A stretch of 64,000 nt of DNA, taken from the IMG/VR virus record IMGVR_UViG_3300046777_002658, positions 96,001 to 160,000 of that record; one strand, written 5' to 3'. Positions within the stretch are counted from its first letter, which is position 1, and each line of letters starts with the position of its first letter. Below the pieces are notes generated by a model. The model did not search any database. It was not told where the DNA came from and saw only the letters and a program-made list of their open reading frames with translations. Source of the stretch: a virus. Both the position numbers and the translations under genes were made by a program. Shown here in pieces: positions 47,790 to 48,173 of the stretch.

Positions 47790-48173
47790 TGATTAGTTGG
47801 TCGTGGGTAAAGAGCCTTAATTGTCTGGAACAACTTTAGAGCATCTAGCACCACAACGTAGTTGGAAACAACAAGCGTGAAGGTTTAAAAAGATAGATGA
47901 TTTAGTCAATCAGCAGCCGAGGTGCTAAACTATAAATATGGATGCTTGGCCGAGCGGTTTAGGCAACGACCTCATAAGTCGTGGGGAGACCCAAGAAAAG
48001 TTCAACTCTTTTAGCATCCACTTATAGCACGTACCGGGTTCAACGATCAGTCTCAAGACGTAGGGTGTAAGGACACTCGAAACAGGCTCCCTCATAATTG
48101 AGGATGATATGATCTGACCGTCTAGTGAAAGCTAGAGAGAGTAGTCGGAACCGGGCTACTCGTAACACAAGTG
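47790..48173 (+). mobile_element. Group I intron 4 in polA (384 nt), splitting motif C (HD|E), with a nested tRNA
   Basis: P1 CACGAU/GUCGUG with U-G at the splice site; AATCAGCAGCC P4 element; P3 GAGCCT/AGGCTC; covarying P7 GATCA/TGATC; ends in G; splicing gives VHDELN. Confidence 0.9.
47940..48020 (+). tRNA. tRNA with CAU anticodon (Met or Ile2) and long variable arm, nested in intron 4
   Basis: Acceptor GGATGCT/AGCATCC+A; D arm GCC/GGC; anticodon ACGAC-CTCATAA-GTCGT (CAT 47973-47975); variable arm GGG-GAGA-CCC; T arm AAAAG-TTCAACT-CTTTT. Confidence 0.85.

Follow-up and report, generated by a model that had tools for sequence, protein, structure and literature searches.

A tRNA gene carried in the P6 loop of a group I intron within the split DNA polymerase gene of a putative cyanophage

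The split polymerase gene and its introns

The window, i.e., the whole 64,000-nt stretch of DNA that was analysed, occupies positions 96001-160000 in a virus record of 196.9 kb with a completeness of 94%. Because the N-subunit of its polymerase had its closest cultured-virus relatives among the Microcystis phages, the metagenomes holding the stretch were of the freshwater and plankton type and the tRNA described below was of a cyanobacterial type, the source virus was taken to be a cyanophage.

The C-terminal subunit gene of a family A DNA polymerase (PolA C-subunit) is interrupted by four introns and one intein (Table 1). All four introns follow a U in the exon and have G as their last base. 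Joining of the five exons resulted in a single open frame and, after removal of the intein, in a 321-aa product, whose extein was 69% identical over 313 aa to the intronless homologue P0076. The string NSVHDELN is present in both proteins, with HDE at the position of the fourth exon junction, and the match of P0076 to solved structures of DNA polymerase I extends through motif C. The product contains motifs A, B and C, including HDE in motif C, as expected for the family. Intron 4 splits the catalytic HD|E of this motif, exactly at the boundaries proposed in the first-pass annotation and confirmed here by the restored frame and the identity to P0076; since the interrupted residues are catalytic, the unspliced RNA would give no active enzyme.

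The division of the family A polymerase into two genes was found across the whole family, with an exonuclease/N-part of approximately 450-470 aa without an intein and a C-part of approximately 316 aa. In the window, the N-part (39360-41768) and the C-part (41934-48425) have a small winged-helix-like ORF (41707-41988) between them, and the nearest cultured relatives of the N-part were Microcystis phages of the Ma-LMM01 type (26-27%).

The cargo of the three upstream introns varied. Intron 1 contains a helix-turn-helix ORF of 122 aa in the loop of P1 (42055-42423) with no recognisable endonuclease, while introns 2 (44430-46204) and 3 (46275-47699) have non-endonuclease cargo in L8, made up of about six small ORFs and of two ORFs of 206 and 101 aa, and closed by long inverted arms. 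None of the ORFs in introns 2 and 3 had a Pfam or PHROG match of note. This cargo differed between close relatives, and a near-identical 3' end was common to both introns. In a near-identical strain, an 875-nt insertion with a LAGLIDADG ORF was present at the start of intron 3 (L237 17119-17748; L002 4611-5249, minus strand) and absent from the window, which, judging by the sequences compared, is a gain or loss of an endonuclease between very close strains.

Table 1. Features of the PolA C-subunit gene and of its fourth intron, in coordinates of the window
Feature	Position	Strand	Remarks
PolA C-terminal subunit gene (split)	41934-48425	+	five exons, four introns, one intein
Exon 1	41934-42038	+	
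Exon 2	42676-44429	+	with LAGLIDADG intein
Exon 3	46205-46274	+	
Exon 4	47700-47789	+	ends in HD
Exon 5	48174-48425	+	begins with E of motif C, runs to the stop codon
Introns 1-4		+	637, 1775, 1425 and 384 nt
Group I intron 4 (subgroup IA-like, P7.1/P7.2)	47790-48173	+	384 nt, between the D and E codons of PolA motif C
P1	47784-47805	+	47784-47789 (end of the exon) pair with 47800-47805 (internal guide); U-G wobble at the 5' splice site
P10 candidate	47793-47798	+	can pair with the start of the 3' exon
5' core	47812-47916	+	P3 5' strand 47812-47817, P element 47819-47830, P5/P5a/P5b extension, Q element 47908-47916
P6 domain	47914-48041	+	P6, P6a 47921-47925/48031-48035, P6b 47930-47935/48022-48027
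Extended -10-like motif TGnTAnnnT	47923-47931	+	8 nt before the tRNA, inside P6a/P6b; candidate internal promoter
tRNA	47940-48020	+	81 nt, CAU anticodon 47973-47975, long variable arm with GNRA loop, discriminator A, CCA not encoded
3' core	48042-48173	+	P7 5' strand with G-binding site 48042-48049, P7.1, P7.2, P3 3' strand 48084-48089, P8 48090-48103, P7 3' strand 48106-48115, P9 48122-48135, P9.1 48139-48161, omega-G 48173
P7.1 and P7.2	48050-48059 and 48063-48078	+	helices between P7 and P3', as in subgroup IA

Structure and splicing of intron 4

Intron 4 has the U-G pair at the 5' splice site in P1 and the terminal omega-G of group I introns, as well as their P3-P8 core, the P, Q, R and S elements and the G-binding pair in P7. 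Compensatory changes across five alleles of this site were present in P3, P5a and P7, and the internal guide changed together with the exon in L001 and L003. The checks with ARAGORN and a group I covariance model, proposed in the first-pass annotation, were both run: the former called a tRNA-Met(cat) at 47940-48020, and RF00028 gave a weak alignment over the whole intron (16.5 bits, E 0.07), in which the tRNA falls within an insertion of 119 nt at P6. The gathering score of RF00028 (50 bits) was not reached by intron 4 and was passed by one of the four introns of the gene. Insertions depress such scores; the sister allele with an empty L6 gave 30.2 bits (E 1.3e-5). There is no ORF in intron 4, and hence no homing endonuclease of a mobile intron, and no homologue of the sister allele's endonuclease was found in the source phage genome.

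The acceptor stem of the tRNA stacks on P6b/P6a across a small internal loop. P6a and P6b, both with a pairing probability of about 1, are the favoured carrier of the tRNA, in place of the GTGCTA/TAGCAC stem named initially, whose pairing probability was 0.0 in the window (0.14 in L248) and which cost 4.8 kcal/mol when forced.

Splicing at the HD|E site was supported by a marine metatranscriptome, in which one contig joins 47789 to 48174 exactly, skipping 384 nt and keeping the 3' end of intron 3, while in a second RNA contig the 3' end of the preceding exon is joined to 47700. The HD-E junction was represented by a single contig with a depth of 4, 30 nt on the short side and 80% likeness to the window. 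Since these contigs come from the sister strain type with the LAGLIDADG allele, in which each of the 12 loci read has an intron at HD|E, the junction supports splicing for the sister allele rather than for the tRNA allele itself. The earlier expectation of an HD-E junction in cDNA was thus realised at the same site in sister-allele RNA and does not extend to the tRNA allele, whose frame was established by exon joining. The RNA runs concerned (X19/X20) carry the LAGLIDADG allele and therefore do not cover the tRNA; neither a mature tRNA nor a processing product was detected in them, and contigs cannot show RNA ends. For the latter reason a 151-nt record from run X17 (RNA status guessed), corresponding to 47872-48021 with an unmatched last letter and thus a possible CCA-extended intermediate, was discarded.

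The intron tRNA and its identity

The presence of an intact 81-nt tRNA within P6/L6, seen already at first reading, was corroborated both by ARAGORN and by Rfam RF00005 (50.8 bits; gathering score 29). The element folds into a cloverleaf with a 7-bp acceptor stem, D, anticodon and T arms and the conserved loops. The variable arm has 3 bp and a GNRA loop, and the T stem is weak, with four A-U pairs and a probability of about 0.6. An Rfam hit to Plastid-ycf2 is no additional feature but the same tRNA in antisense. No other CAU tRNA was found in the 94%-complete phage genome.

A search pattern made of the D arm and anticodon loop had 120 genome hits, belonging to cyanobacteria wherever named; the identity of the hits in these two elements is partly built into the pattern, while that in the T loop, the discriminator and the end of the variable region is not. 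In the complete cyanobacterial genome G004, the three CAU tRNAs represent fMet, elongator Met and the class of the intron tRNA, and the last, distinct in its body from the other two, is therefore Ile2 by elimination. The long variable arm was also found in two cyanobacteria, e.g., Crinalium (L074). Compared to the nearest cyanobacterial tRNAs, 6 to 9 of the 17 acceptor, anticodon and T stem pairs were changed on both sides and none was broken, while the T loop, A73 and the end of the variable region were kept. Among the positions that may bear on recognition by TilS and IleRS, A73, U33, A37 and A38 were kept and the pairs 6-67, 31-39 and 52-62 differed from the near-fixed host state. The intron tRNA is quite likely of the cyanobacterial Ile2 type rather than the Met type called by ARAGORN. 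It resembles cyanobacterial tRNA-Ile2(CAU) in the D arm, anticodon loop, T loop and A73, and that of Crinalium also in the long variable arm with GNRA, but its acceptor and T stems have been rebuilt by compensatory changes and it is embedded in an intron.

Codon usage of the phage is compatible with this assignment. The two codons most enriched compared to cyanobacterial ORFs were AGA (4.9 times) and ATA (3.4 times), the latter accounting for 36% of the Ile codons in the phage against 9% in cyanobacterial ORFs, and these two match the phage's tRNA-Arg(UCU) and the intron CAU tRNA. The tRNA-Arg(UCU), the other clear tRNA of the phage, is free-standing at 1113-1188 of the window and also present in the relatives G001 and G002. 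A CAU tRNA is turned into an Ile tRNA by lysidine at C34, while unmodified C34 results in Met (PMC9976931). No TilS was found in the phage genome.

A released but unmodified tRNA would act as elongator tRNA-Met, or as a nuclease-resistant substitute for a host tRNA, instead of a codon supplement. This reading, which partly overlaps with those discussed below, seems unlikely: the D arm, anticodon loop, T loop and long variable arm match the Ile2 class, as in Crinalium L074, and the 3.4-fold enrichment of AUA also argues against it. Moreover, the G2-C71 and C3-G70 pairs of host Met tRNAs, which we take to be Met determinants, are absent. What it has in its favor is the ARAGORN reading of CAU as Met together with the Met identity given by unmodified C34 (PMC9976931), a G39 that is common to cyanobacterial elongator Met tRNA, and an anticodon stem different from the host Ile2 class at 31-39.

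Alleles at the HD|E site and possible roles of the cargo

Introns at the HD|E site were found with three types of L6. The loop spans 124 nt with the tRNA (window, L237 and L248), 580-591 nt with a LAGLIDADG ORF (13 loci in total, i.e., L001 and 12 loci of the L003 type) and 37 nt, forming a short hairpin only, in the single empty allele L250; other relatives had no intron at HD|E. L237 is an independent near-identical strain with an identical tRNA, while L002/L248 represents a divergent phage with the tRNA in L6. The exons of the L003-type loci were 92-96% identical to the window and L001 was distant. The LAGLIDADG ORF in L6 was recognised by Pfam (LAGLIDADG_2, E 6e-5) and matched PHROG 11023 weakly, with 47% identity between the L001-type and L003-type ORFs. 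The statement in the first-pass annotation that the tRNA takes the slot of an endonuclease is therefore correct for the same-site intron of relatives, but not for the other introns of the source gene with their unknown ORFs. A gene spacing of 566 nt in the contig of P0007 would fit the short allele. A second cargo slot was observed in the P5 extension of the same-site intron, occupied by a 91-aa unknown ORF in L002/L248 (L002 2674-2949, minus strand) and by a 196-aa antisense ORF in L250 (7051-8000).

Between the window and L248, the tRNA differed at 1 of 81 positions, a change in the variable loop preserving the GNRA, against 34 of 303 in the rest of the intron (Fisher p 0.004), 22-26% in the exons (about 75% identical) and 15 of 26 four-fold sites of the last exon. 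The cloverleaf, whose conservation in homologous introns had been part of the test named in the first reading, is kept in L248 (80 of 81 nt) but lacking in the LAGLIDADG (13 loci) and empty (1) alleles. Compared to the adjoining P6-P9 block (10/180), the tRNA had no significant extra conservation (p 0.18), so that its identity could be explained by a recent block transfer. This block was 91-98% identical between phages whose other intron cores were 68-90% identical, while the 5' half of intron 4 had diverged by 18-22% between the window and L248, with compensatory changes. The introns at the HD|E site, of which five alleles were compared, are mosaics. The tRNA identity between the window and L248 may reflect either strong selection or a recent transfer between lineages of the block, which has no endonuclease of its own. 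In the P9 region (48114-48173), the window, L003 and L248 agreed at 59-60 of 60 nt despite different cores and exons. Relatives carrying the LAGLIDADG allele had the same gene set with the intron tRNA absent nearby, and a 96%-complete distant relative had no such tRNA either, indicating that it is dispensable.

The high identity of the P6-P9 block against that of the other cores would also fit a cloverleaf that is a passenger or structural cap, captured in a tolerant loop, travelling with the block and never released as a working tRNA. The weak T stem and the altered near-invariant pairs (6-67, 31-39, 52-62) point in the same direction, as does the empty allele L250, for which a short hairpin suffices. 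We nevertheless regard this as improbable, since a cap needs neither the intact anticodon, D and T loops and discriminator nor stem changes that are all compensatory relative to host tRNAs; the anticodon, furthermore, suits the codon bias of the phage, and the divergence of the 5' half of the intron with its compensatory changes argues for a long separation.

The best explanation as a whole, whose chances we put slightly above even, is that the intron splices, that the tRNA is released by host RNase P, 3' trimming and CCA addition, that it supplements the decoding of AUA and that it helps to keep an endonuclease-free intron. As part of this explanation, intron 4 would be a working self-splicing group I intron, with the non-essential loop L6 as a swappable cargo slot. 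The polymerase transcript would be made and intron 4 removed from it, restoring HD-E, at boundaries that are defined here and with a junction that is present in sister-allele RNA. The tRNA is predicted to fold as an independent cloverleaf atop P6b. Mostly after splicing, host RNase P would cut between 47939 and 47940, a 3' nuclease would trim after 48020 and CCA would be added; because the P6b pairing of leader and trailer should delay processing in the folded ribozyme, release would occur mostly from the excised intron, which probably doubles as a tRNA precursor. Host TilS would then convert C34 to lysidine, enabling a tRNA of the observed class, once charged, to read AUA, which is rare in cyanobacteria and common in the source phage. 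Owing to the benefit of the tRNA, the intron could be retained in the gene in spite of lacking an endonuclease. The latter idea was part of the first-pass annotation and agrees with the location of the tRNA, which looks selected, in the endonuclease slot of the sister alleles.

Two further scenarios concern the relation of the tRNA to splicing. The tRNA might be functional but have a promoter of its own within the intron, like the T4 intron ORFs, the intron being a safe parking place and splicing irrelevant to the output. The extended -10-like motif before the tRNA was kept in L248, such motifs having a frequency of 0.0017 per base per strand in the phage genome, and a precedent exists in the T4 intron endonucleases, which have middle or late promoters inside introns (PMC2988022). 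However, the motif was spotted post hoc, its conservation is explained by the P6a/P6b pairing, it has no -35 partner and was not reported by the consensus promoter scan, and no terminator follows the tRNA, all of which leaves this scenario with a low probability. A T4-type late promoter look-alike at 47931-47938 was rejected, having a wrong spacing and being changed in L248. The other scenario, a regulatory switch in which RNase P and 3' processing destroy the ribozyme in the unspliced precursor and the tRNA and polymerase outputs compete, is very unlikely despite a cloverleaf predicted to form in the precursor as well and the interrupted catalytic residues, since cuts in L6, falling outside P6a/P6b, leave P6, P6a and P6b paired (approximately 15 bp), the T4 td intron split in the P6-L6a region is able to trans-splice (Galloway Salvo 1990, as cited in PMC3201874), efficiently at 55 °C or with RNA chaperones in a two-piece assay (PMC1920258), nothing in the sequence hints at a switch, and many sister alleles lack the tRNA. 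A cut precursor is thus not necessarily dead, and the claim that processing and splicing must compete or be ordered was not sustained.

Intron 4 resembles the td-type introns of phage T4, whose cargo sits in L6, apart from its lack of a homing endonuclease. The T4 td intron belongs to subgroup IA2 with I-TevI in L6a, and the DNA polymerase introns of Bastillevirinae and SPO1 are comparable (PMC11878797, PMC2988022). Like them, intron 4 is a group IA intron of a phage, interrupts a conserved motif in a gene of DNA metabolism and has a cargo looped out from a peripheral element, but in contrast to them its cargo is a structural RNA gene and not an endonuclease ORF, and it encodes no protein. The 45 Bastillevirinae introns surveyed had either endonucleases or no ORF as cargo, and tRNA is mentioned once in the text of that survey (PMC11878797). 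In Ophiostoma minus, the intron atp6-i1 includes a LAGLIDADG ORF followed by tRNA-Ile, and cox1-1281 includes a tRNA-Arg (PMC7902536). These fungal mitochondrial introns likewise have a tRNA gene inside a self-splicing intron of a protein gene; however, they are organellar, known from annotation only and have the tRNA beside an endonuclease ORF, while in the phage it replaces the ORF and is grafted directly on P6b. Another useful gene, rps3, is housed in a fungal rnl intron. The hexacoral mitochondrial ND5 group I intron includes many genes in P8, among them both rRNAs (PMC3073962). In both of these a group I loop houses useful genes unrelated to mobility, with the difference that the coral and fungal rnl cargo consists of kilobase-scale organellar blocks and that of intron 4 of one swappable 81-nt tRNA module. 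In cyanobacterial tRNA-Leu(UAA) and tRNA-fMet a group I intron interrupts the tRNA and must be removed. There too a tRNA and a group I intron share one transcript, but the arrangement is the reverse of that in the phage, where the whole tRNA lies within the intron.

In the literature covered, which left most subscription papers outside the search scope, no publication describing a phage intron that contains a tRNA was found. Pattern scans for L6 tRNAs in group I introns among IMG/VR viral contigs (58 hits in one scan) and metagenome contigs recovered the known relative alone, the remainder being chance matches or free tRNAs; as the patterns need exact motifs, this demonstrates rarity and not absence. 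The 46 other viral matches to the tRNA pattern were free-standing tRNAs. In GenBank phages there was no intron with this tRNA, and similarity to other phage introns was limited to P4-P5. Intron 4 with its tRNA is real, correctly located and an unusual variant of cargo-bearing group I introns.

More tentatively, and with somewhat less than an even chance, phage group I introns may have been domesticated as tRNA precursors, the excised ribozyme being the obligatory source of a needed tRNA, which would tie its supply to polymerase expression and allow an endonuclease-free intron to persist and even to spread between lineages. If true, this would be a bacterial-virus counterpart of the intronic snoRNAs. 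Why introns persist in compact phage genomes after endonuclease loss is an open question, and the three natural alleles at one site, with an endonuclease, empty or with a tRNA, provide existing material for testing whether a useful cargo can take the place of homing. Furthermore, a 384-nt construct is suitable for studying how a single RNA accommodates both self-splicing and RNase P processing. As regards annotation, tRNAs of this kind are hidden in split genes: the intron tRNA was missed by the Rfam fast filters in the whole window and in the genome of a relative, and intron 4 itself is below the RF00028 threshold. Degenerate tRNA-like elements (Lys/Leu-like, Asp and Pro) form a cluster outside the window, at G000:C1 11895-12204; one of them, at approximately 12066-12128, has CCA and the acceptor, D and T arms but lacks an anticodon arm.
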